Shown here in pieces: positions 8,853 through 64,000 of a stretch of 64,000 nucleotides of DNA. The first letter of the stretch is position 1. Every line of letters starts with the position of its first letter. The DNA comes from Eledone cirrhosa (taxonomy: Eukaryota): positions 61,814,001 through 61,878,000 of the forward strand of contig OZ024743.1 of assembly GCA_964016885.1 (NCBI GenBank). Reading direction: 5' to 3'. The notes beneath the pieces are model-generated. The model was not told the origin of the DNA. It worked only from the letters and a program-made list of their open reading frames with translations, and searched no databases. A program made the position numbers and the translations under genes.

Positions 8853-8932
8853 CTCCAACTAATTAGTTTCTGCAATGGGATAAAGACAGTTACGTAATGA
8901 ACTGTTGAGAATTTCATTGCGTCATCAGGGAG
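8853..8932 (-). ncRNA. Type I hammerhead ribozyme, copy 2
   Basis: Same sequence as 8298-8377, 555 nt away. Confidence 0.75.
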
Positions 8933-9516
8933 GTCATTCTCAGCCGAGTCTCCAGGCGAGGCGCGGACACTGGGGACTCATATAAAAATAATAATAATTC
9001 GGCAACTGGAACAGCTATCGAGGACTGGATTCCAGCCACTGAAAATTCTCACTGCCACTGATCATATGGCCGATTCTAAAGAATCTAAGTAAGTAAGTTA
9101 ATTTAAAAAAAAAAAAATTTTTTATAGAAATTTTCTTATTTTACGTCTTATATATTATTGTTCTGCATTCTCCTGCATTGAACCACCTAGGTACTATGAC
9201 ATAACCTGTGTATTTGCTGGCATTAGCGTACATCTGTGCGCTTATATTAGTAGATATATTAAATTATCTATCTATATATATATATATATTAAACCTGTTA
9301 GTGTCTATGTCCGAATGTGTAAATGGACAATTCGTTCTAGTTCGATCGGTATTTTGCGTCAGGTGTGTTGTTGGTCGGGGTGCCGCTAGGTTCGGTGTTG
9401 GTAACGTATTGTTCGCCTCTGTTGGTGTTTAGCGTTGGGATGTTGTTAAGACAGTTGGCCGTCCTGAGTTTGAGAAATTTTTGCGTTAGGCGTATTTTCT
9501 CGTAGTCTCGGCGGCG

Positions 9517-10662
9517 GTGTTTATTGACACAGCTGTCGATTTATTGACGGACTGCGTGGTCGCAGAGAACATCCACTGCTACGGCCTCCACCCGACGGAC
9601 ATACACCAGCTTTTGTCCTTCACAGTAGACAACACGTACTTCACCTTCCACCACGACACATACAGACAGACAACAGGATTACCCATGGGATCCAGCCTTT
9701 CGGGCCTGCTGGCCATCACCTACATGAACCAGCTAGAATGCCGAGCCCTCAACACCTGCCATTCCCATGCCTTCTTCACCCGATATGTAGATGACATACT
9801 CATCCTTACATCATCCCGTGAGGAGGCTGAGAAAATATACACAACATTCTCCAGCATGGACGCCAGTATAAAGTTCAGCATGGAACACCCCGATGACCAC
9901 GGATCCCTATCCCTACTGGACTTCCAACTCAGGGTAACAGAGGAAGGCAACATCCACACCTGCTTCTATAAAAAATCCGCCAGCAGGGACCTGTTCGTAC
10001 ATTTCAGATCGGCCCTCCCACTCGGTGCCAAGCTCGGATACATAAAGAACGAACTGGCACGTATCAAGAACAAATGCACCGACGCCAGAGACCGAGACAC
10101 ACACACCACACATTTCCTGGAAGAACTCAAACTGAACGGATACACGACATCCACCACAAACCGTGCCAGAAAGAACAGAGGACACCACACCCGAGGCACT
10201 AACACTTGCTTCCTGAAGCTCCCACACTTCAGTGAAGAAACAACAACAGCCATCCGCAGAGCCTTAAGACGAGAGGGACTGGATATCCAACTGGCCCACT
10301 CGGGTCCTTCTCTGCGCGGACGGCTGGCCAAGAGACACTCCACCAGACATGACAACTGCTGCAGACTAGCCAACTGCCCCATCAACGACACAGACCTATG
10401 CCACCAGGCTTACGTAGTATACAGACTAGAGTGTGACAAATGCAACAACTTCTACGTAGGTAGCACCACCAGACCACTCCACATAAGAATAAAAGAACAC
10501 CTCAATACTAACGCTTCCTCATTTAAGAAACACCTAGTTAAATGCAAAAACACCGATAAAAACATAACAGTTAGGATAGAAACTAAGGAAAGAAACCTCG
10601 GCAATCTTAGAATTAAGGAAGCACTTATTATAGATAGAACACATCCACCAATCAATAATTGA
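9517..10662 (+). CDS. PLE reverse transcriptase plus C-terminal GIY-YIG endonuclease (Penelope/Poseidon-like), 5'-truncated
   Basis: YRQTTGLPMGSSLS, RYVDDIL, FSME...LSLLD, VVYRLEC..C..YVGSTTRPLHIRIKEH, KEALII...PPIN. Confidence 0.9.
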   Translation: MFIDTAVDLLTDCVVAENIHCYGLHPTDIHQLLSFTVDNTYFTFHHDTYRQTTGLPMGSSLSGLLAITYMNQLECRALNTCHSHAFFTRYVDDILILTSSREEAEKIYTTFSSMDASIKFSMEHPDDHGSLSLLDFQLRVTEEGNIHTCFYKKSASRDLFVHFRSALPLGAKLGYIKNELARIKNKCTDARDRDTHTTHFLEELKLNGYTTSTTNRARKNRGHHTRGTNTCFLKLPHFSEETTTAIRRALRREGLDIQLAHSGPSLRGRLAKRHSTRHDNCCRLANCPINDTDLCHQAYVVYRLECDKCNNFYVGSTTRPLHIRIKEHLNTNASSFKKHLVKCKNTDKNITVRIETKERNLGNLRIKEALIIDRTHPPINN

Positions 10663-11100
10663 CTAGAGCTCAACACCCAATTTATAACCTGATAGGACCT
10701 CTAGCCCCATTTTTACACACCCCACACACACGCACGCGCACACACACACACGCTTACACCTCCATTTATTCTCTCTCACACATACACACACAAAACCAGT
10801 TCTAACACCAGATAACACCTACCCCCCACTTTTACGATTAGACCTATCTTCCCACACTCACACACACACACCCACATACCTACACCTTCATGCATTCTCC
10901 CACACACATATACAGGCACGTATATAAAATTTAAAAAAAATAAATAAATAAACCCTAAACAAACCCCTCTTAAAGGGAGACTACTCTTTATCCACCTAAT
11001 TTTAATTCTTTAATATTAGAGTTAGCACAGATACTCTATACTATTTCCGGTCAGCATGGCTTGGCTAGAGATTTAAAGACGCTGGTTTGAGACCTTTACT

Positions 11101-11138
11101 TCCCTCCGAAGAAGAGATATTATCTCGAAAATTAAGGA
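11101..11138 (+). ncRNA. Minimal hammerhead-like motif in the PLE pseudo-LTR
   Basis: CCT CCGAAGA a GAGATA t TATCTC GAAAATTA AGG. U4C core variant; stem III (AATT) could only form in a dimer. Confidence 0.5.
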
Positions 11139-13397: not shown

Positions 13398-13515
13398 TTA
13401 TATATATATATATATATATACTTATATATATATATATATATATACTTATATATATATATATATATATATACTTATATATATACATATATATATATATATA
13501 CTTATATATATATAT

Positions 13516-14286
13516 CATATATTCACTTAGCTTATGCTAAACAGAATAATTTTTGAAGCTTGTTTCTATCCCCTACGGTATGCTATACTTTCGGTTGTTC
13601 TCCTGTCTCACTCGCTTTACGCGTTTTAATTGTCCTAATAACTTATTTTGGTTATTATTGCACCGAAGTGAGATATATGATTTTTAATGCAATGAAATAT
13701 CTATGATCTTCGGCAAATCACTGATGAGGGACTTATTTTATTACATGTTATCCATGTGCTACCTGCAGTATTTTTCTCTATATTTTAATACATATATTTA
13801 CCACTGCGATTCTGTGTTTTTTTCTCTCTCTCTTACTGTTCCCCCATTCTCTCTGTTTCTCCCCCTCTGTCTTGTCCGTTAATTCTTCCTCACACTTTCA
13901 TTCACTCACTGTTTTTCTCCCTCTTCTCTTCATTTCATCCTGTACTCACGAACGCTATATTTTTCTCTCTCTGCTCATAGCCCTCGTTCGTGTAGGTTCT
14001 ATTCTCTAAGCGCTCATATATTCACCTAGCTTATGCTAAACAGAATAATCTTTGAAGCTTGTTTCTATCCCCTACGGTATGCTATACTTTCGGTTGTTCT
14101 CCTGTCTCACTCGCTTTACGCGTTTTAATTGTCCTAATAACTTATTTTGGTTATTATTGCACCGAAGTGAGATATATGATTTTTAATGCAATGAAATATC
14201 TATGATCTTCGGCAAATCACTGATGAGGGACTTATTTTATTTCATGTTATCCATGTGCTACCTGCAGTATTTTTCTCTATATTTTA
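13516..14286 (+). mobile_element. Non-autonomous element with a 499-nt period and a structured CTGATGA/GAAA motif
   Basis: 13516-13787 recurs at 14015-14286 almost identically; a diverged copy lies at about 31095-31420. Confidence 0.75.
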
Positions 14287-14308
14287 TATATATATATATA
14301 CATATATA

Positions 14309-20084: not shown

Positions 20085-21945
<1,861 letters not shown>

Positions 21946-25654: not shown

Positions 25655-25690
<36 letters not shown>

Positions 25691-25695
<5 letters not shown>

Positions 25696-25891
25696 AACAA
25701 GTAAGACCCCGACGGCTGATCTCAAGCCGTTTCGACGGCTAATTCTGGACTAATTCCAGAATTAGCCGTCGAAACGGCTTGAGCTCAGCCGTCGGGGTCT
25801 TACTTGTCCCTATTACCCACTCTACTACCCTAAGTATTGAGTACTTTGGTGCGTTATGGTCCACCTGGTTCCTTACCACATTTCCTTCGTT
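25691..25891 (+). mobile_element. Fold-back element carrying the 3' half of a hammerhead
   Basis: Near-perfect palindrome 25691-25813. The right arm has GAAA CGGC ttgagctca GCC GTC, then a 78-nt unique tail; TA flanks. Confidence 0.8.
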
Positions 25892-31050: not shown

Positions 31051-31094
<44 letters not shown>

Positions 31095-31412
31095 TCTTGC
31101 TCACATCTCACTCACGTCGGACGGTCTGTATATCTCTCTCGCTCATGAAATCCACCCAGCTTAAGCTGACCGGATTCCCATGCTGCTTGTTTTTTCCTAT
31201 CTTTGCGTTGCTATCCTTCCCTGTTGTTTACTGTCTCGTTCGCTTTACGCGATTTACTTGTCCCAATAGCTTTATTTAGCTATTGCTCACACCGACCGGA
31301 GGTATATGATTTTTAAAGCAATTAAATACCAATGAAGGTTGAAAAATCACTGACGAAGGACTATTTTTATCATATGTAACCCATGTGCAACCACGCAGTA
31401 TTCTTTCTTCTC

Positions 31413-31420
<8 letters not shown>
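31095..31420 (+). mobile_element. Diverged copy of the 13.5/14.0-kb structured element
   Basis: Shared CGCTTTACGCG, ATATGATTTTT, AAATCACTGA(C/T)GA and CCATGTGC blocks. Confidence 0.7.
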
Positions 31421-31489
<69 letters not shown>

Positions 31490-32844: not shown

Positions 32845-35800
32845 TTATCTCTTTCTCTTAATTTCGAGTATATTTTTTTTGACCGGCCACCTTCCTGGTG
32901 GCAAGGTTGTAAAAGAAAAGAAATTGTCATCCCTTGAATCGCAAGAATGTTTTGCAAATTTTGAAGGTGCCAGCTATCGCAGCCATTTGTAGACTATGAA
33001 TTAGGGAGCTGCGCTTTTTGTCCGCAAATCCAAGTTCAGTCATACTTTGGTCCAAGCGGGTTGGTATATAACCCGTAGCTGATGAGTATAAAGCTAAAGG
33101 TGTATCTTGGATACTGGATTTGTAAACTCCTCATCAATGGTCCGTAGATGCCCTCCTTCTCCTGTATTTTTCTGACAACGTTTACACAAGTGGGCAGCTG
33201 ATCTCCACAACAGAACACGTTTTCAATGTGTGGTCCCAAAGAAGGCCGGTTGTGCTTTAATTTGGTGGCAGTTTTTATTTTCAGGTTCCACCAGTATTCG
33301 TTAGTGCCATCTGTCTCAATATATTCTTCCTCGTTTGTTAATTTTGTTTTCCGAAGTGCGTTCCAGATGGTTCTAGCTATCCCATCGTGTCTCATGGAGA
33401 GGTAGTAGCGAGATGACATTATTTCGCAGCTGGCAACAATGTGGCTTACATCCTCGATTTTTGTTTTACATAGCATTTATTGTCAGCTGCTCTCCCTCCT
33501 CTTTTGAGCAGCAGATATTTGGTAGGGAGTTCTTGTTCCTGTATTGCATAGAGATATCCCTCAAGGTGTGATGTCATAAACTTGTCGGAACTCCATGCCA
33601 GGCTTTTTGAGTGGTTTATCCTCTCTATGGTCTGTGTTTTACGTCTCAAGTATCCATGCACAACTTTTTCTGTAAATTGGTCAATTTTTTCATCTTGTTT
33701 GAACATTGAATAGGATCTTCCGATTTCTCTGGGTGAGAGATTTATATCGGGCTTTATTCCATATCCCTCCTCCAGATCAGTCGCTATTCTAATGATATTT
33801 TTTTTCATGCTCATAAACCTGGGCAAGATGGTTGCCAACTTTTTCCTCTGCTGAAGGTGTTGCTTCAGTGTTACTATCCGGGTCTCATATGTTGTTAATA
33901 TTGATTTGAGACCCGACCACCTTCCTTGCGTGAGAAGTATAGCCTATCCACATCGCCATTGATGTTAAAGTTCCCAGTAACACTGAGAAGTTTGCGAGTT
34001 CTAACATCCATCTCACTTAGTTCTTGCAATGACCAGTTCAGCAGGCCAAATGTTGGCGTTAGAATTGGCACAGCATAAGTATTGTGGGCAATCTATTTGT
34101 TGTATGCTGACAGTTCTGATGACCATATTTTCTTTACTCTTCTGAGGTATTCAGTTCTGGTTCTCTCCTTATTTATGGGTCCATCATATCTGACATTCTC
34201 ATCCTGTCCAAGATATATGTAGTTATCACCTGACTGTAGAGGTTGTATTGTCAGGCCGTTCATCTCTAGATTTCTAGAGGAGGGCACAGCTCTTCCACGT
34301 TTTACTGCCAAATATGCGCACTTGGACTCACCAAATTTCATTTTGATGTCGGTTGAAAATTGTGTAATGAGGTCCAGTTGTTTCTTGATGTCATTGGTAT
34401 TTGGCCCATACAACTTCAGGTCATCAACAAAGAAAAGATGGAGATACTTCTGGACCCACTTCTTTGTCCACCTTGTTTCCTGAGTAGGTAAGATAGTGGA
34501 TTCAGTGATAGAACGAAGAGTAGCACTGACAAGCTATGAAAGATGCCCTTCTGGTAATGTATCTTATCAGTCTTAACTTGCTCCTTCTCACCTCTAAGGA
34601 TCAAATTGGTGTACCAGTTCTTGGTCAGGCGTTCAACAGCAGCTACCAATGGTTGTGGGACTTTAGCTAACTGTAAAGCCTTAATAATCCACCCATGAGG
34701 TACACTATCAAATGCTTTTTGATAGTCCAGCCACACCACAGTCATGTTTCTGCGATTCTTTGTTGTTTCTTCCTGAATCATTTTGTTAGTTAGTAGGTGA
34801 TCTATGCAACCCCACACCTCCCTCTTTCCACCAGCTTGCTCATGTGTTATGATGTTGTTGGTAGCACAGTGATCCTGTAAGAACAGGTTAAGGCACCCAG
34901 TATATAATTTATACATGATGTTTTGGCAGGCTATTGGGCGGTAATTTTTAGCAAGGGTGGTTTGGCTATTTTGGGGGATGAGGAGAGTAGTGGCAGTTGA
35001 TAACCATCTGGGCAGTTCTTGTGTGCCTTTAATGGTTTCTGTAAACAGCCGTATGAGATCTTGCCGATAGAAAGTGAAATTCTTCAACCAGTATCCTAAT
35101 GAGGTCTGGGCCTGGCGATTTCCTATTCGACATTTTCTGTAGAGCTGTTTCCAGTATTGACCCATCTATGTCATATTGTTTTGTCTGGACATGTTGGCAG
35201 TAGTCCTGTTCCAGTTCTTTTAGCCAATTAGTTTGTCTGTTGAATCCGTCATCCGTTTCTCATACAGATATCCAGTAGCTCTCAACCTGTTCTTTTGAAG
35301 GGGTGTCATTTACAGGGATTGAGCTTTTGCCACCGAAGCTGCGATAAACTGATTTAGGATCTCTGGCAAACAATCTATTTAGCACTTGTCGTTTATGTGC
35401 TGTTGACTTATATTTTAGTCTTTCTGTTGTAGCTGTGAGTTGTTGTTTCAACTGGTGTAATTTGGAGTTCAAAGTTTTAAATTTTGTATCTCCAAATCGT
35501 CTCTCTAACTTTTTTTTTAGGTCTTCCTGATGTCGTGTGAAGTTGCTCTCTATGTTGCATTTCATAACGACTGCGATGTGTGAGATACTTCGTCTCAGGG
35601 ACAAAATTTTGCTTTTTAAATTTCGCATCCACGCTGGTTCAGGCTTTCTGTTTGTATCTTGATTGCGTGGTTTTAGATGTGTGTTATATGATAGCAATGT
35701 GACAGCTGAAACATATAACAAAATATTAAGCGTTTCAAATGTCGTTTCTACACCTTTAGATCGTATAGCCTTCAGATAATTGCCAGCTATTTCGTTCACC

Positions 35801-37024
35801 GCTTCCAATTCCAATTTAGTGGGTTCTTTACTGATTCTGCTGTTGTATGGTCTGTCACTCACATTAAGGCCGTGTATCTCTTGAAACATATCGTTCCATA
35901 TCACTTGTAAGGTGTCCACAAGTTTTTGGTGTTCTGTTTGTTCAGTAGAGTCATGAATTTCAGCCTCGTTGTTGATGTGGTGACAATTACTACTAGAGTT
36001 AGCTGACCTTTCTCGCTGTTCTTCAGTGGAAGTGGGATGGATTTCAGCAAAACTGTTGGTGAGCTGTTCACTGTTAGATTTAGCTGGCCATTCTCTTTGT
36101 CTGTCAGTGGAGGTGGGCGGTTGTCTACAAGGGCTGTATTTGTAGTATCACTCAATTCCGTTAGATGTATCAATTTACATCTAATGATACGTTTTGCCTG
36201 TTCATTTAAATGGTTTGGAGAAAAGTCTAATTCTGAGTGTTTGTAGTTCCATAAAGTTTTTAGCCTTTGCATAAAACCGAACTTTTGGGGTTCAGATTGT
36301 TTGTATGCTTCATATAATTCTTTGTTAAGCTCGTCGCTCCACTGTATACAACGATTGTAGTTGCGATTTGGTCGAAGGAGACTTGTACTTTTTGCCATGA
36401 TGAGTTCGTCTATTCACTAATATTTCGTATTTATTTTTCAAAATAGTCGATGATCTTCTTTAAAAGTTACGACAAAGTTCTATCAGAATCAAATTTAAAG
36501 TTATTCACAGCTTGGGTAATATTTCTTTTCAGTTAGTTTTTAATTCTACAACTGTGTTTTAAACGTTGTTCTTGAATCGTTTGAATCGAGAACAAAAAGA
36601 ACCGTTACTTAGTATATTTCTTTATGAATGTAATATAATATAACAACGTTATATGTTAAAGTTTATGTATCATTCATATAAATAGGTGTTCTACAACTTA
36701 TTCACAACATATTCACAGTTCAAACACTTGTTTTTGTTTCTGAATCGAAAACGTTACTTGTATATTTATTTATAAATGTAATATAACAACGTTGCATTTA
36801 TATGTTAAAGTGTATGTATCGTTCATATATCATAAGTGTATGTAGCGTTCATATAAATAGTTGTTTTACAACACACTTACAGTTCAAACACTTATGTAGA
36901 ATTATTGTATGTAATTTTACCGCGTAATGTAGCTCAACTTTTTCCAATATATGGTGTGTTGCCTTCATGTAAGCCGTAATTACACACGTCCGATTATCGG
37001 ACACTGCCCACAACGGTCGCCATT
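32845..37024 (-). mobile_element. R4/Dong-type REL retrotransposon, full-length, disabled copy
   Basis: Collinear with 37104-41327. ORF 32927-36398 is broken by stops and frameshifts, and the QGD motif is deleted (KGIFHSLS). Confidence 0.92.
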
Positions 37025-37103: not shown

Positions 37104-40100
37104 TTTTCTCTTTCTCTTAATTTCGAGTATATTTTTTTGACCGGCCACCTTCCTGGTGGCAAGGTTGTAAAAGAAAAGAAATTGTCATCCCTTGAATCGC
37201 AAGAATGTTTTGCATATTTTGAAGGTGCCAGCTATCGCAGCCATTTGTAGACTATGAATTAGGGAGCTGCGCTTTTTGTCCGCAAATCCAAGTTCGGTCA
37301 TACTTTGGTCCAAGCGGGTTGGTATATAACCCGTAGCACCAATAATGATGGGTATGAAGCTAAAGGTGTATCTTGGATACTGGATTTGTAAGCTCCTCAT
37401 CAATGGTCCGTAGATGTCCTCCTTCTCCTGTATTTTTCTGACAACGTTTACATCAAGTGGGCAGCTGATCTCCACAACAGAACACGTTTTCAATGTGTGG
37501 TCCCAAACTACAATATCAGGCCGGTTGTGCTTTAATTTGGTGGCAGTTTTTATTTTCAGGTTCCACCAGTATTCCTTAGTGCCATCTGTCTCAATATATT
37601 CTTCCTCGTTTGTTGTTAATTTTGTTTTCCGAAGTGCGTTCCAGATAGTTCTAGCTATCCCATCGTGTCTCATGGGGAGGTAGTAGCGAGATGACATTCT
37701 TTCGCAGCTGGCAACAATGTGGCTTACATCCTCGATCTTTGTTTTACATAGCCTACATTTATTGTCAGCTGCTGGCCCTCCTCTTTTGTGCAGCAGATAT
37801 TTGGTAGGGAGTTCTTGTTCCTGTATTGCATAGAGATATCCCTCAAGGTGTGATGTCATAAACTTGTCGGAACTCCATGCCAGGCTTTTTGAGTGGTTTA
37901 TCCCCTCTATGGTCTGTGTTTTACGCCTCAAGTATCCATGCACAACTTTCTCTGTAAATTGGTCAATTTTTTTTTCTTGTTTGAACATTGAATAGGATCT
38001 TCCGATTTCTCTGGGTGAGAGATTTATATCAGGCTTTATTCCATATCTCTCCTCCAGATCAGTCGCTATTCTAATGATATTTCTTTTTTCATGCTCATAA
38101 ACCTGAGCAAGATGGTCGCCAACCTTTTTCCTCTGTTGAAGGTGTTGCTTCAGTGTTACTATCCGGGTCTCATATGTTGTTAATATTGATTTTAGACCCC
38201 GGCCACCTTCCTTGCGTGAGAAGTATAGCCTATCCACATCACCATTGATGTTAAAGTTCCCAGTAACACTGAGAAGTTTACGAGTTCTAACATCCATCTC
38301 ACTTAGTTCTTGCAATGACCAGTTCAGTAGGCCAAATGTTGGCGTTATAATTGGCACAGCATAGGTATTGTGGGCAATGTATTTGTTGTATGCTGACAGT
38401 TCTGATGACCATATTTTTTTTACTCTTCTGAGGTATTCAGTTCTGGTTCTCTCCTTATTTATGGGTCCATCATATCTGACATTCTCATCCTGTCCAAGAT
38501 ATCTGTAGTTGTCACCTGACTGCAGAGGTTGTATTGTCAGGCCGTTCATATCTAGATTTCTAGAGGAGGGCACAGCTCTTCCACGTTTTACTGCCAAATA
38601 TGCACACTTGGACTCACCAAATTTCATTTTGATGTCGGTTGAAAATTGTGTAATGAGGTCCAATTGTTTCTTGATGTCATTGATATTTGGCCCATACAAC
38701 TTCAGGTCATCAACAAAGAAAAGATGGGAGATACTTCTGGGCCCACTTCTTTGTCCACCTTGTTTCCTGAGTAGGTAAGATAGTGGATTCAGTGAGAGAA
38801 CGAAGAGTAGTACTGACAAGCTATCACCCTGAAAGATGCCCTTCTGGTAATGTATCCTATCAGTCTTAACCTGCTCCTTCTCACCTCTAAGGATCAAATT
38901 GGTGTACCAGTTCTTGGTCAGGCGTTCAACAGCAGCTACTAATGGTTGTGGGACTTTAGCTAACTGTAAAGCCTTAATAATCCACCCATGAGGTACACTA
39001 TCAAATGCTTTTTGATAGTCCAGCCACACGACAGTCATGTTTCTGCGATTCTTTGTTGTTTTTTCCTGAATCATTTTGTTAGTTAGTAGGTGATCTATGC
39101 AACCCCACACCTCCCTCTTTCCACCAGCTTGCTCAGGTGTTATGATGTTGTTGGTAGCACAGTGATCCTGTAAGAACAGGTTAAGGCACCCAGTATATAA
39201 TTTATACATGATGTTTTGGCAGGCAATTGGGCGGTAATTTTTAGCAAGGGTGGTTTGGCTATTTTTGGGAATGAGGAGAGTAGTGGCAGTTGATAACCAT
39301 CTGGGCAGTTCTTGTGTGCCCTTAATGGTTTCTGTAAACAGCCGTATGAGATCTTGCCGATAGAAAGTGAAATTCTTCAACCAGTATCCTGTAATGAGGT
39401 CTGGGCCTGGCGATTTCCTATTCGACATTTTCTGTAGAGCTGTTTCCAGTATTGACCCATCTATGTCATATTGTTTTGTCTGGACATGTTGGCAGTAGTC
39501 CTGTTCCAGTTGTTTTAGCCAATTAGCTTGTCTGTTGAATCCGTCATCCGTTTCCCATACAGATCTCCAGTAGTTCTCAACCTGCTCTTTTGAAGGGGTG
39601 TCGTTTACAGGGATTGAGCTTTTGCCACCGAAGCTGCGATAAACTGATTTAGGATCTCTGGCAAACAATCTATTTAGCACTTGTCGTTTATGGGCTGTTG
39701 ACTTATATTTTAGTCTTTCTGTTGTAGCTGTGAGTTGTTGTTTCAACTGGTGTAATTTGGAGTTCAAAGTTTTAAATTTGGTATCTCCAAATCGTCTCTC
39801 TAACTTTTTCTTTAGGTCTTCCTGGTGTCGTGTGAAGTTTCTCTCTATGTTGCATTTCATAACGACTGCGATGTGTGAGATACTTCGTCTCAGGGACAAA
39901 ATTTTGGTTTTTAAATTTCGCATCCACGCTGGTTCAGGCTTTCTGTTTGTATCTTGATTGCGTGGTTTTAGATGTGTGTTATATGATAGCAATGTGACAG
40001 CTGAAACATATAACAAAACATTGAGCGTTTCAAATGTCGTTTCTACACCTTTAGATCGTATAGCCTTCAGATAATTGCCAGCTATTTCGTTCACCGCTTC

Positions 40101-41327
40101 CAATTCCAATTTAGTGGGTTCTTTACTGACTCTAGTGTTGTATGGTCTGTCACTCACATTAAGGCTGTGTATCTCTTGAAACATATCGTTCCATATCACT
40201 TGTAGGGTGCCCACAAGTTTTTGGTGCTCTGTTTGTTCAGTAGAGTCATGAATTGCAGCCTCGTTGTTGATGTGGTGACAATTACTACTAGAGTCAGCTG
40301 ACCTTTCTCGCTGTTCTTCAGTGGAAGTGGGATGGATTTCAGCAAAATTGTTGGTGAGCTGTTCACTGTTAGATTTAGCCGGCCATTCTCTTTGTCTGTC
40401 AATGGAGGTGGGGTGGTTGTCTACAAGGGCTGTATTTGTAGTATCACTCGATTCCGTTAGATGTATCAATTTACATCTAATGATACGTTTTGCCTGTTCA
40501 TTTAGATGCTTTGGAGAAAAGTCTAATTCTGGGTGTTTGGAGTTCCATAAAGTTTTTAGCCTTTGCATAAAACCGAACTTTTGGGGTTCAGATTGTTTGT
40601 ATGCTTCATATAATTCTTTGTTAAGCTCGTAGCTCCACTGTATACAACGGTTGTAATTGCGATTTGGTCGAAGGAGACTTGTACTTTTTGCCATGATGAG
40701 TTCGTCTATTCACTAATATTTTGTATTTATTTTTTTTAAATAGTCGATGATCTTCTTTAAAAGTTACGACAAAGTTCTGTCAGAATCAAATTTAAAGTTA
40801 TTCACAGCTTGGGTAATATTTCTTTTCAGTTAGTTTTTAATTCTACAACTGTGTTTTAAACGTTGTTCTTGAATCGTTTGAATCGAGAACAAAAAGAACC
40901 GTTACTTAGTATATTCCTTTACGAATGTAATATAATATAACAATGCTGTATTTATATGTTAAAGTTTATGTATCATTCATATAAATAGGTGTTCTACAAC
41001 ATATTCACAACATTCACAGTTCAAACACTTATATTTTTGTTTCTGAATCGAAAACGTTACTTTTATATTTCTTTATAAATGTAATATAACAACGTTGCAT
41101 TTATATGTTAAAGTGTATGTATCGTTCATATATCATAAGTGTATGTATCGTTCATATAAATAGGTGTTTTACAACACACTTACAGTTCAAACACTTATGT
41201 AGAATTATTGTATGTAATCTTACCGCGTAATGTAGCTCAACTTTTTCCAATATATGGTATGTTGCCTTCATGTAAGCCGTAATTACACACGTCCAATTAT
41301 CGGACACTGACCACAACGGTCGCCATT
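37104..41327 (-). mobile_element. R4/Dong-type REL retrotransposon, full-length, intact
   Basis: Same 5' and 3' ends as the neighbour, (TATG)n on both sides, 5' UTR about 630 nt, 3' UTR hairpin GCCACC-N5-GGTGGC. Confidence 0.93.
37185..40694 (-). CDS. Single ORF: reverse transcriptase, CCHC knuckle and PD-(D/E)xK restriction-like endonuclease
   Basis: KSPGPD, NYRPIAC, WLDYQKAFDSVPH, GIFQGDSLS, FVDDLK, CRLC..E..HIVASC, RHDGI, RPDIV..VVEISCP.D.N..K..EK..Y. 1169 aa uninterrupted. Confidence 0.95.
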   Translation of the reverse strand: MAKSTSLLRPNRNYNRCIQWSYELNKELYEAYKQSEPQKFGFMQRLKTLWNSKHPELDFSPKHLNEQAKRIIRCKLIHLTESSDTTNTALVDNHPTSIDRQREWPAKSNSEQLTNNFAEIHPTSTEEQRERSADSSSNCHHINNEAAIHDSTEQTEHQKLVGTLQVIWNDMFQEIHSLNVSDRPYNTRVSKEPTKLELEAVNEIAGNYLKAIRSKGVETTFETLNVLLYVSAVTLLSYNTHLKPRNQDTNRKPEPAWMRNLKTKILSLRRSISHIAVVMKCNIERNFTRHQEDLKKKLERRFGDTKFKTLNSKLHQLKQQLTATTERLKYKSTAHKRQVLNRLFARDPKSVYRSFGGKSSIPVNDTPSKEQVENYWRSVWETDDGFNRQANWLKQLEQDYCQHVQTKQYDIDGSILETALQKMSNRKSPGPDLITGYWLKNFTFYRQDLIRLFTETIKGTQELPRWLSTATTLLIPKNSQTTLAKNYRPIACQNIMYKLYTGCLNLFLQDHCATNNIITPEQAGGKREVWGCIDHLLTNKMIQEKTTKNRRNMTVVWLDYQKAFDSVPHGWIIKALQLAKVPQPLVAAVERLTKNWYTNLILRGEKEQVKTDRIHYQKGIFQGDSLSVLLFVLSLNPLSYLLRKQGGQRSGPRSISHLFFVDDLKLYGPNINDIKKQLDLITQFSTDIKMKFGESKCAYLAVKRGRAVPSSRNLDMNGLTIQPLQSGDNYRYLGQDENVRYDGPINKERTRTEYLRRVKKIWSSELSAYNKYIAHNTYAVPIITPTFGLLNWSLQELSEMDVRTRKLLSVTGNFNINGDVDRLYFSRKEGGRGLKSILTTYETRIVTLKQHLQQRKKVGDHLAQVYEHEKRNIIRIATDLEERYGIKPDINLSPREIGRSYSMFKQEKKIDQFTEKVVHGYLRRKTQTIEGINHSKSLAWSSDKFMTSHLEGYLYAIQEQELPTKYLLHKRGGPAADNKCRLCKTKIEDVSHIVASCERMSSRYYLPMRHDGIARTIWNALRKTKLTTNEEEYIETDGTKEYWWNLKIKTATKLKHNRPDIVVWDHTLKTCSVVEISCPLDVNVVRKIQEKEDIYGPLMRSLQIQYPRYTFSFIPIIIGATGYIPTRLDQSMTELGFADKKRSSLIHSLQMAAIAGTFKICKTFLRFKG

Positions 41328-50460: not shown

Positions 50461-50754
50461 TGATGAGGTCAAAATGAGACCGAAGATATCTCGAGTAGTC
50501 CCACACACTTGACAAAATAATTAAAATAAGGCATTAACTAATATTGACGTTTTCCTTACCACACAATAAATTTATAATTAGCTTTCATATGTTTCTTATA
50601 TTATGTGAACTCTTGCTTGACTGCTGTTTTTTTTTATGGGGATGACTTTTTGGACTAGCTTGCCACAAAATCTGGTATATCCTACATTGACCTAATAATT
50701 CTCCCATCACTAACTGAGGAAGAATGGTGAAGTCTGTTTTACTGATGAGGTCAC

Positions 50755-51144
50755 AATTGTTTCTACTATTGGCACAAGGCCAGCAATTATCCTAGTACAT
50801 TACTGGTACTTTATTTTATCGACCCCGTAAGGATGAAAGGCAAAGTTAACCTCAGCGGGATTTGATCTCAGGCCATAAAGGGACGTAACTCTTTGCTGCA
50901 AAGCATGGCGTCAGACCCTCTACCGATACTGCCAATCCACCGCCTGATGAGGTCATAATTGTTTCTACTTTTGGCACAAGGCCAGCAACTACCCAGTGGA
51001 TTACTGGTACTTTATTTCATCGACCCCGTGAGGATGAAAGGCAAAGTTAACCTCGGCGGGATTGAACTCAGAATGGCAAGGACCGTAACTCTATGCGTCA
51101 AAGCATGGCGTCCGACCCTCTACCGATACTGCCAATTCACCGCC
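50755..51144 (-). mobile_element. Tandem pair of family A SINEs bounded by a triplicated 15-bp sequence
   Basis: TGATGAGGTCA(C/T)AAT at 50743, 50945 and 51146. Confidence 0.8.
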
Positions 51145-51827
51145 ATGATGAGGTCATAATGACACCGAAACATGACCGGGGTTGTCTCACGTACTTACCA
51201 AAATAAATATAATATTAATCAGGAACGAAAATACTTAATTCCTCACATCGTAACCAATTTTATTTAGCTTTTTTTTTACTAAACAATCTGTCTGTCTGAT
51301 CATAATCACATTTAGTTAGCTTTTTTAGCGCTCCATGTATTATGTTAACAGTAATTTAACTATCTGTGAGTATTTCTAGTTAGCATTGAAATACTCTTAG
51401 CATTAAACATGTTAACACTAACGTAATAATCTATCTCTCTCATTTTATTTCTAGTCAGTTCTCGAAATATCAAATAAATTAACTTTAAATTACTTATTTA
51501 TGTACGTGGACGTAGCATGACTGAATGCTTCTTTTTCTTTTTTTTTTGTTTCTTCTTCTTCTTAGAGGCGTGCCCTCCCCAAGTGCTCTTGAAGCGTAGG
51601 GTGATTCAGGATTGATAGGGTACCTCAATCGCCCCTGGGTCGAAATTGTGGAATTTATTTTGTTAAGTAATGCATAGTTTATTATATATTTTCATTGTTA
51701 AATTGATTTTGCTATTATACACTTTTACTCCAGCTTATTGTCAACCCCATTGTCCCTGTTTTTGTATTGTCCCCTACATGTCGGCCCGTGTGGCCAATAA
51801 ATGAAATCATTATTATTATTATTATTA

Positions 51828-60799: not shown

Positions 60800-63700
60800 G
60801 CCATATATAGACGCTACATCTAGCCATATATAGACACCACGTCTAGTATATATAGGCACCACATCTAGTATATATAGAAACCACATCTAGTTATATATAG
60901 ACACCACATCTAGTATATATAGACACCACGTCTAGACATATATAGACACGACGTCTAGTATATATAGACACCACATCTAGTATTTATAGACACCACGTCT
61001 AGTATATATAAACATCAAATCTAGTATATAGAGTCACCACATCTAGTATATATAGACACCACATCTAGTTATATATAGACACCACATCTAGTATATATAA
61101 CACCACGTCTAGTCATATATAGACACCACGTCTAGTATATATAGACACCACATCTAGTATTTATAGACACCACGTCTAGTATATATAGACATCACGTCTA
61201 GTATATATAGTCACCACATCTAGTATATATAGACACTACATCTAGTATATATAGACACCACATCTAGTATATATAGACACCAAGTCTAGTATATATAGAC
61301 ACCACATCTAGTATATATAGACACCACATCTAGTATATATAGGCACCACGTCTAGTATATATAGACACCACGTCTAGTTATATATAGACACCACATCTAG
61401 TATATATAGACACCACGTCTAGTCATATATAGACAACACATCTAGTATATATAGACACCACATCTAGTATATATAGACACAACGTCTAGTATATATAGAC
61501 ACCACATCTAGTATATATAGACACCACATCTAGTCACATATAGGCACCAGGTCTAGTTATATATAGACACCACATCTAGTATATATAGGCACCACATCTA
61601 GTATATGTATAGGCACCACGTCTAGTATATATAGACACCACGTCTAGTATATATAGACACCACGTCTAGTCATATATAGACACCACGTCAAGTTATATAT
61701 AGACACCACATCTAGTGATAGATAGACACCACGTCTAGTATATATAGACACCACGTCTAGTCACATATAGACACCACGTCTAGTATATATAGACACCACA
61801 TCTAGTCATATATAGACACCACGTCTAGTATATATAGACACCACGTCTAGTCATATATAGACAACACGTCTAGTATATATAGACACCACATCTAGTATTT
61901 ATAGACACCACGTCTAGTATATATAGACATCACGTCTAGTATATATAGTCACCACATCTAGTATATATAGACACTACATCTAGTATATATAGACACCATA
62001 TCTAGTATATATAGACACCACGTCTAGTATATATAGACACCACATCTAGTATATATAGGCACCGCATCTAGTATATATATAGGCACCACATCTAGTATAT
62101 ATAGACACCACGTCTAGTATATATAGACACCACGTCTAGTCATATATAGACAACACGTCTAGTATATATAGACACCACATCTAGTCATATATAGACACCA
62201 CGTCTAGTATATATAGACACCACATCTAGTATTTATAGACACCACGTCTAGTATATATAGTCACCACATCTAGTATATATAGACACCACATCTAGTTATA
62301 TATAGACACCACATCTAGTTATATATAGACACCACATCTAGTTATATATAGACACCACATCTAGTATATATAGACACTACGTCTAGTCATATATAGACAC
62401 CACGCCTAGTATTTATAGACACCACGTCTTGTATATATAGACATCACGTCTAGTATATAGTCACCACATCTAGTATATATAGACACCAAGTCTAGTATAT
62501 ATAGACACCACGTCTAGTTATACATAGACACCACGTCTAGTATATATAGACACCACATCTAGTATATATAGATATCACATCTAGTCATATATAGACTGGT
62601 GTCTATAGACACCACATCGAGTCATTTATAGGCACCACGTCTAGTTATATATAGACACCACATCTAGTTATATAGACACCACATCTAGTTATATATAGGC
62701 ACCACGTCTAGTTATATATAGACACCACATCTAGTCATATATAGGCACCACGTCTAGTCATATATAGACACCACGTCTAGTATATATAGACACCACATCT
62801 AGTCATATATAGACACCACGTCTAGTATATATAGACACCACATCTAGTATTTATAGACACCACGTCTAGTATATATAGACACCACATCTAGTCATATATA
62901 GACACCACGTCTAGTCATATATAGACACCACGTCTAGTATATATAGACACCACGTCTAGTATATATAGACACCACATCTAGTATATATAGATATCACATT
63001 TAGTCATATATAGACACCACATCTAGTCATATATAAATACCACGTCTAGTATATATATAGACACCACATCTAGTATATATAAACACCACGTCTAGTTATA
63101 TATAGACACCACGTCTAGTTATGAATAGACACCACTTCTAGTTATGTATAGACACCAGGTCTAGTTATATATAGACACCACATCTAGTCATATATAGACA
63201 CCACATCTAGTCATATATAGACACCACGTCTAGTATATATAGACACCACATCTAGTCATATATAGACACCACGTCTAGTCATATATAGACACCAGGTCTA
63301 GTATATATAGACACCACATGTAGTTTATATAGACACCAAATCTAGTATATATAGACACCACGTCTAGTATATATAGACACAACGTCTAGTATATATAGAC
63401 ACCACATCTAGTCATATATAGGCACCAGGTCTAGTATATATAGACACCACATGTAGTTTATATAGACACCAAATCTAGTATATATAGACACCACGTCTAG
63501 TATATATAGACACAACGTCTAGTATATATAGACACCACATCTAGTCATATATAGACACCACATCTAGACATATATAGACACCACGTCTAGTATATATAGA
63601 CACCACATCTAGTCATATATAGACACCACGGCTAGTTTATATAGACACCACATCTAGTTATATATAGGCACCAGGTATAGTATATATAGACACCTTATCT

Positions 63701-64000
63701 AGTATATATAGACACCACATCTAGTATATATAAACACCACGTCTAGTATATATAGACACCACGTCTAGTATATATAGACACCACATCTAGTATTTATAGA
63801 CACCACGTCTAGTATATATAGACATCACGTCTAGTATATATAGTCACCACATCTAGTATATATAGACACTACATCTAGTATATATAGACACCATATCTAG
63901 TATATATAGACACCACGTCTAGTATATATAGACACCACATCTAGTATATATAGGCACCGCATCTAGTATATATATAGGCACCACATCTAGTATATATAGA
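60800..64000. repeat. Satellite with a 22-23 bp unit GACACCAC(A/G)TCTAGTATATATA, running off the window
   Basis: Period 22 (GAC at 61276, 61298, 61320), roughly 140 units. Confidence 0.95.

Follow-up and report, generated by a model that had tools for sequence, protein, structure and literature searches.

The window (the whole 64,000-nucleotide stretch of Eledone cirrhosa DNA analysed here) carries a short tandem array of a repeat, denoted subfamily A, on its forward strand (13516..14287). The array comprises approximately 1.55 units of 499 nt; it is truncated at its 5′ end, its 3′ end runs into (TA)n, and (TA)n lies on both flanks. Unit 2 is offset by 499 nt from unit 1, with three differences in the first 272 positions. 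A predicted ribozyme is present in both units (copy 1, 101 nt at 13632..13732, delimited by alignment and covariation; copy 2 at 14131..14231, with a predicted cut 3′ of A14176). A 5′-truncated copy of a second subfamily (B; unit approximately 525 nt) lies between (TA)n runs at 31093..31425 (+) and includes a ribozyme at 31260-31361 (+). The first-pass annotation had noted TAAA in place of GAAA in this copy as a caveat; the change (G12 to U at 31323) is private to it, as G12 is retained in 27 of 29 subfamily B copies. Given this and its other private mutations, the ribozyme of the 31.3-kb copy is likely to be dead.

The genome (3.0 Gb in 1,796 contigs) is rich in microsatellites and retroelements, and the remainder of the window contains several of these. 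Penelope-like fragments encoding reverse transcriptase and GIY-YIG sequences are present at 9490-11135 (+) and 20650-21500 (-), with degenerate canonical hammerhead motifs, identified by eye, in their 3′ regions. Long inverted repeats next to (TA)n runs (8870-9260 and 25690-25810) look as if derived from inverted 5′ pieces of Penelope-like insertions. An open LINE-type frame of 1,174 residues occupies 37185-40709 (-), its decayed tandem copy lying at 33036-36413 (-), whilst a 22-nt satellite of more than 140 copies fills 60803-64000. A second tandem repeat (50462-51170; 201-nt unit) contains remnants of an ordinary type I-like hammerhead, and is also found beside many of the other loci examined.

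The 499-nt unit contains the conserved core of a hammerhead ribozyme (CUGANGA, GAAA and an NUH triplet), with stems I and III flanking the cleavage site; conventional hammerhead position numbering is used throughout. The motifs reported in the first-pass annotation are all located where it placed them, i.e. ATTGCA at 13657, CCGAAG at 13663, AGATAT at 13671, A13677, TGATTT at 13678, TGCAAT at 13688, GAAATATCT at 13694, CTTCGG at 13708, AAATCA at 13715 and CTGATGA at 13721, but its string left out the linkers at 13669-70, 13703-07 and 13714, two of which form a predicted k-turn. The strands run in the order cleavage site (S), GAAA (G) and CUGANGA (C), where a cyclic arrangement requires S, C, G; the order is thus none of types I–III, as had been proposed. 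A strict S-G-C descriptor gave two hits in the window and none in 100 dinucleotide shuffles, whilst a looser version gave two hits in 100 dinucleotide shuffles. Searching Rfam with 13500-14290 at E values up to 10 gave six matches, none of which is a hammerhead, and for the whole window the matches, among the 150 of 282 listed, were driven by microsatellites only.

Six helices are predicted within the 101 nt, all on the forward strand. Helix a (13632..13635 with 13729-13732) closes off the ribozyme at both its 5′ and 3′ exits; 87.5% of its cells are paired, and two of its four pairs show changes on both sides. It is followed by hairpin h (13636..13657; 7 bp, 88.6% paired, with double-sided changes in 6 of 7 pairs), which forms an arm of a predicted four-way junction. 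Helix b (13658..13661 with 13689-13692; 93.9% paired) is the likely equivalent of stem II. Helix c (13663..13668 with 13708-13713; 91.4% paired, 5 of 6 pairs changed on both sides) is predicted to be the equivalent of the stem I–II interaction helix and, at the same time, the NC helix of the k-turn. The 5′ strand of stem III and the NUH triplet occupy 13672..13677, stem III (13672-76 with 13697-701) being 95.2% paired and H17 being position 13677. The predicted cut lies 3′ of A13677, with U at position 16.1 in 32 of 33 copies and a residue other than G at H17 in 32 of 33. The strand after the cut site (13678..13683) forms stem I with 13715-13720 (96.9% paired, 6 of 6 pairs changed on both sides). 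The G block, placed by alignment and covariation at 13689..13701, comprises the 3′ strand of helix b, position 11.1 (T13693), G12-A13-A14 and the 3′ strand of stem III; the C block (13708..13732) comprises the 3′ strand of helix c, the stem I 5′ strand, the CUGAUGA core (13721-13727), position 10.1 (G13728) and the 3′ strand of helix a. A tail region with two small hairpins (13733..13790) follows, at the end of which lies the fixed 3′ end of genomic copies.

These percentages derive from an alignment of 33 natural copies representing approximately ten subfamilies, which we chose from 244 distinct copies together with older-family loci. Over the six helices 91.6% of 1,079 cells are paired and 25 of 33 pairs have changed on both sides. 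Slid helices were 32-47% paired, the covariation score was reached by none of 500 shuffles, and in a blind mutual-information scan the top seven of 5,681 column pairs all fell in helices c (the top two), I and b (one pair); the shuffle and mutual-information controls treat the copies as unrelated, and the structure was drawn from the same 33 sequences. The anchor pattern imposed GAAA, CUGANGA and the k-turn residues G1b/A2b on this alignment; unbiased support for the core comes from five subfamily sets collected by BLAST (27-44 copies each), in which C3, U4, G5, A6, G8, A9, G12, A13, A14, A15.1 and U16.1 are the commonest letters. Single-sequence folding, in which pseudoknots are impossible, gave z-scores between -0.8 and -5.0 in six copies, with -1.2 in the linear monomer, and recovered helices a, h, c and III locally.

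The central proposal of the first-pass annotation, a hammerhead in non-circular order with covarying pseudoknotted helices, is therefore borne out by covariation of six helices over 33 copies. The observation itself is real, and the strand preceding GAAA does pair upstream (helix b), but the annotation missed two further helices of the four-way junction. Two of its pairings need correction. A13657 does not pair with T13693 but closes the hairpin, T13636:A13657 becoming C:G in other subfamilies. For the 31.3-kb copy, the ATTGCT/AGCAAT pairing is in the wrong register, as its letters overlap a separate hairpin (31264-31285); the homologous helix of that subfamily is TCGC/GCGA.

A departure from known hammerheads lies in stem II. 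A continuous stem II was not found: the strand after A9 and the strand before G12 pair in 70% of copies at the first position, then in 45, 3, 48 and 45%. Instead, each stem II strand pairs with an upstream partner of its own, and hairpin h lies between these partners, giving a four-way junction above the core. The remaining 10.1:11.1 contact is a standard pair in only 23 of 33 copies (A.A, A.C, C.A and U.U are also seen), with both U-A and G-C forms present and five cells changed on both sides. Helix b, with at most this one additional pair, likely plays the part of stem II, since it is linked to stem I by 3-5 nt and to helix c by 1 nt, as in the tested SGC-1 ribozyme. An alternative that retains both the secondary structure and self-cleavage, and differs in geometry alone, takes helix a (GGAC/GUCC) as the true stem II; the letter after A9 is then a tolerated extra, with h, b and the whole S block inserted between 11.1 and G12. 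The usual hammerhead preference is for G10.1-C11.1, and 30 of 32 copies have C-G as the opening pair of helix a; the residue following A9 is free to vary. A stem II whose 5′ end carries an unpaired letter has, moreover, been described for hammerheads of Penelope-like elements (PLEs; PMC4209133) and for SGC-1 (PMC10085705). Nonetheless, it is helix b and not helix a that is tied to stem I and helix c as stem II is in SGC-1; where subfamilies have lost the extra letter, GAAA is preceded by C, so that 10.1:11.1 becomes G-C; and the doubly changed versions of that pair exist. We thus consider assignment of helix a as stem II possible but rather unlikely, and helix b is treated as the stem II equivalent below.

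The linker between stem III and helix c has the features of a k-turn, its two strands, as judged from letter counts, being 13669..13671 (U3n, G2n, A1n; non-bulged) and 13702..13707 (3-nt bulge, G1b, A2b, U3b; bulged). In the window copy a C, three bulged letters, G13705, A13706 and U13707 lie opposite U13669, G13670, A13671 and G13672, i.e. the letters of the standard k-turn described by Huang & Lilley (PMC5061560). Across the 33 copies, A1n is present in 28 and the closing C-G in 29; at position 2n, 17 copies have G and 15 have U, the form also found in natural Kt-23 (PMC5061560), and the bulge letters vary. In each of the five subfamily sets collected by BLAST, G and A are the most frequent letters at 1b and 2b. 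As in standard and non-standard simple k-turns (Kt-7, box C/D, Kt-23; PMC5061560), a 3-nt bulge of variable sequence is followed by G.A and A.G (or A.U) pairs, with a closing C-G; the predicted k-turn differs from these in sitting within a hammerhead, with stem III as its C helix, and in being lost in one subfamily. The main G subfamily has C at 1n in 25 of 30 copies, resulting in a plain 3-nt bulge instead of a k-turn, and also has a shorter I-b linker; an A1nC change abolished k-turn function in the SAM-I riboswitch (PMC5061560). Where present, the k-turn likely bends stem III back onto helix c, allowing the ring of helices to close.

The S-G-C order itself is not new. It was published as 'type SGC' (HRIMA-1 and variants) by Eckert, Friedrich, Weinberg & Weinberg (2023; PMC10085705), who report in vitro cleavage for five examples, and the claim of a new topology in the first-pass annotation accordingly holds for three features only, namely the splitting of stem II, ring closure and the k-turn. 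Type SGC was described from metatranscriptomes (environmental RNA) only, with none reported there from genomes of known organisms, whereas the Eledone cirrhosa family has more than 18,000 copies in an animal genome. The repeat shares with type SGC the strand order, the 3-5-nt linker between stems I and II, and the helix joining their other sides (c); the linker sizes agree with those of the tested SGC-1 (oligonucleotide table and alignment rows; PMC10085705). It lacks the unbroken block C, in which a stem II strand directly follows CUGAnGA: the strand at this position in published SGC ribozymes is found 5′ of the cleavage site in the repeat. In type SGC, stem II is formed by the strand following CUGAnGA, and the RNA has its ends between the I–II helix and stem III (PMC10085705). 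In the repeat, stem II opens into the four-way junction, helix c and stem III are connected on both strands via the predicted k-turn, and the ends exit through helix a. The search pattern of Eckert et al. (CGAAA, CUGAUGAG and a stem II of two or more further pairs; PMC10085705) cannot match such a family.

Among the papers listed on type-SGC, non-circularly permuted, k-turn or octopus and cephalopod hammerheads, assessed by title and start of abstract and with subscription journals outside the search, none describes the split build; by the same measure no natural hammerhead k-turn is described, and neither 'k-turn' nor 'kink' appears in the SGC supplement (PMC10085705). Within the searches made, it is thus the build (split stem II, ring and k-turn) and the animal-genome host that are new. 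A metagenome scan with a pattern fixed on GTCC/GGAC gave at least 119 loci, and of the 119 listed none passed the S-G-C descriptor. In a viral scan, three of 67 loci passed the loose descriptor, as one look-alike stretch with G-U-rich stems and without the other helices, which was judged by eye to be due to chance.

In the genome as a whole, the core pattern has 15,804 exact matches, with none for a reversed-pattern control. A second pattern, applied with matches to the first excluded, added 2,658 (21 in its control) and revealed further, older subfamilies, bringing the superfamily to at least 18,400 pattern matches. Near-identical relatives of the 499-nt unit account for at least 157 matches in tandem arrays (from 39 of 1,072 candidates scored). 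The motif occurs once per unit, with units of approximately 490-750 nt across subfamilies, and the stop-to-stop frames of the unit shift from copy to copy. The repeat thus consists of non-coding tandem units with one ribozyme each in many dispersed copies, as do retrozymes. The ribozyme region is better conserved than most of the unit (0.66-0.78 in 25-nt bins over five subfamilies, versus 0.36-0.63 elsewhere and 0.73 for one further bin).

The ends of genomic copies inform on how the repeat may have spread. Copies run from a fixed 3′ end past the ribozyme into (TA)n, and of 23 distinct arrays of subfamily A, 22 have this end within unit positions 262-286, the 23rd having been placed in a separate search. 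The 5′ ends are scattered, none being at the cut site, and subfamilies C, D, E and H have two 3′ ends approximately 40-50 nt apart. A target of (TA)n, truncated 5′ ends, a pair of 3′ ends separated by one tail, and inverted 5′ pieces (the inverted pairs were partly hand-picked, and no rate is derivable from them) are together the features of Penelope mobilisation; the (TA)n insertion and the paired 3′ ends in particular point to a Penelope-like machinery. A PLE 'tail' and an internal start of reverse transcription were described by Frangieh et al. 2024 (PMC11167929) and Craig et al. 2021 (PMC8557442), and the two 3′ ends of the Eledone cirrhosa subfamilies resemble this tail; the end of the 13733..13790 region would then mark the start of reverse transcription. 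Units within an array differ by 1.8 per 250 nt compared with 5.5 under label shuffling (reached in 0 of 2,000; 64 of 73 segments kept, 9 dropped), which is as expected if one template, in the simplest case a circle, was copied repeatedly, although local duplication or gene conversion could also have produced this likeness, and one very long array exists.

The repeat shares with non-LTR retrozymes (Cervera & de la Pena 2020, PMC7229834; Li, Clavereau & Pollet 2026, 10.64898/2026.07.22.740005) its non-coding tandem units of a few hundred bases, with one ribozyme each, its thousands of dispersed copies and its putative link to Penelope-like elements, but those retrozymes are defined by a type I hammerhead (PMC7229834), whereas the repeat carries one in the SGC order. 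Similarly, it shares with the terminal-repeat hammerheads of PLEs (Cervera & de la Pena 2014, PMC4209133; Frangieh et al. 2024, PMC11167929) AT-rich targets, copies that end some tens of bases beyond the ribozyme, a second end separated from the first by one 'tail', and inverted 5′ pieces; those hammerheads are, however, minimal type I motifs (PMC4209133). The element likely works like a type-SGC hammerhead in a non-LTR retrozyme, and we count it as a variant since one defining feature of each class is lacking.

No autonomous Penelope-like element with an SGC-order ribozyme was found in 30 (of 150 GIY-YIG matches listed) and 13 further GIY-YIG loci, or in 40 older-family loci, and the PLE fragments examined carry canonical hammerhead motifs or none. 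Two candidate partners were rejected: a Neptune-like family lies near the motif in three loci but lacks it in its 3′ region, and a PLE beside an old copy carries an ordinary minimal hammerhead. Two 14-letter family motifs are absent from the supplement of Craig et al. 2021 (PMC8557442), in which line breaks could hide a match, and a search for a shared tail motif gave 14 rows with no clear PLE end. Another structured GC-rich repeat (L060:1280-1480, L325 and L406) ends at (TA)n and has a similar AC-rich tail motif.

The arrangement of helices and core letters suggests that the S-G-C hammerhead of the unit probably folds as a monomer within its 101 nt and cuts its own RNA 3′ of A13677 and A14176. 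In the proposed mechanism, transcription of an array would yield a multimeric RNA in which each ribozyme folds in cis, helix a and hairpin h sealing, as a four-way junction, the gap left by the displaced stem II strand, and cuts after H17 to give unit-length RNAs. The ends of each unit RNA would be held together by helices a, b, c and III, and the circle could be closed by the RNA itself or by tRNA ligase. A Penelope-like reverse transcriptase/endonuclease acting in trans would then nick a (TA)n target and reverse transcribe from a fixed internal site approximately 65-130 nt after the cut (the AC-rich hairpin past the ribozyme), going round the circle one to several times. Cutting of the transcript into units is likely; these would then circularise before being copied to new places. 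None of the sequencing runs listed for the unit is recorded as RNA, which speaks neither for nor against expression. Contigs from four runs of unrecorded type were kept out of the evidence, as these cannot show RNA strand, ends or level. In one of them (run X4, which bears another organism label), the sole contig on the unit (489 nt, depth 2.2) covers window positions 13679-14171, beginning 1 nt past one predicted cut and stopping 5 nt short of the following one; as the termini of a contig cannot reveal those of an RNA, we regard it as a lead only.

Related ribozymes are often poor cutters alone, which counts against self-cleavage: one of nine Xenopus retrozyme dimers was cleaved (10.64898/2026.07.22.740005), and the PAc hammerhead needed protein (PMC11167929). 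One alternative is that the fold is real but that cutting requires a protein (Snu13/15.5K on the k-turn, or a Penelope-like protein), or that the fold is mainly a protein-binding scaffold. Subfamily A has U.U at 3b.3n, several subfamilies resemble boxes C and D, and pairing at 10.1:11.1 is weak; k-turns of the box C/D kind require protein in order to fold (PMC5061560), and the PAc precedent is of the same kind. On the other hand, 3b.3n is A.G or C.U in subfamilies B, C1, D, F and K, obeying the rules for ion-induced folding, tertiary contacts can fold a k-turn without protein (both PMC5061560), and five tested SGC ribozymes cut protein-free (PMC10085705). Dependence on protein, or a mainly scaffolding role, is in our view improbable.

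Another conceivable reading is that the monomeric knot is too tight and that the active form is a domain-swapped dimer or an assembly across tandem copies. Animal tandem and PLE hammerheads are often dimeric (PMC7229834; PMC4209133), and the ends of stem III and the I–II helix, which lie far apart in the crystal structure considered by Eckert et al. (PMC10085705), are here joined by both strands. All helix partners are nevertheless found within one 101-nt stretch, with linker lengths near-fixed across subfamilies, so that assembly across tandem or circular copies, which the first-pass annotation had put forward, is not needed. No palindromic loop is conserved, nested folding gives helices a, h, c and III locally, and the k-turn falls exactly at the bend that is required; in addition, tested SGC monomers cut, some of them with no letters at all linking stem III and the I–II helix (PMC10085705). 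An obligatory dimer is thus very unlikely. That the motif is a chance rearrangement or a functionless relic, carried passively by the repeat, is scarcely credible: single genomic copies do decay, that at 31.3 kb among them, but compensated changes in six helices with an intact core over approximately ten subfamilies run against such a reading, which the 33-copy covariation largely refutes. Cleavage by the monomer thus appears to be the most reasonable explanation.

The family bears on two points raised by Eckert et al. (PMC10085705), who count six possible hammerhead orders on the assumption that CUGAnGA is inseparable from its stem II strand, and who note that the ends of stem III and the I–II helix, distant in the crystal structure, are yet sometimes directly joined. 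The split stem II breaks that assumption, and we offer the k-turn as an answer to the geometric puzzle, since a 50-degree kink at this position would explain how such distant ends can be joined. With this family, the S-G-C order is also placed in the genome of an animal, in very many copies and with deep covariation. As standard descriptors and Rfam miss it, surveys of ribozymes in animal repeats are likely to be incomplete. A broader and more speculative reading, which taken as a whole we think unlikely, is that this is the first non-circularly permuted ribozyme of an animal genome built as a closed, k-turn-gated ring of helices, in which a host L7Ae-family protein (Snu13/15.5K) switches the cutting and self-ligation of a mobile circular RNA. 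The RNA would circularise without a protein ligase because approximately 19 bp hold the cut ends together, and similar split hammerheads may be present in the 'core' or 'half core' Penelope-like families; among the elements listed by Craig et al. 2021 (PMC8557442) are Naiads whose hammerhead core or half core is unexplained.

Two further observations concern the repeat outside its ribozyme. At G000:C1:81.55-81.64 Mb, dozens of matches spaced at multiples of approximately 515 nt extend over approximately 90 kb, forming a satellite-sized array of an A-type unit. Within the unit, a CACTCACT-like spacer box (13880-13905) is kept in all five aligned subfamilies (0.73), and is possibly a promoter or protein site.
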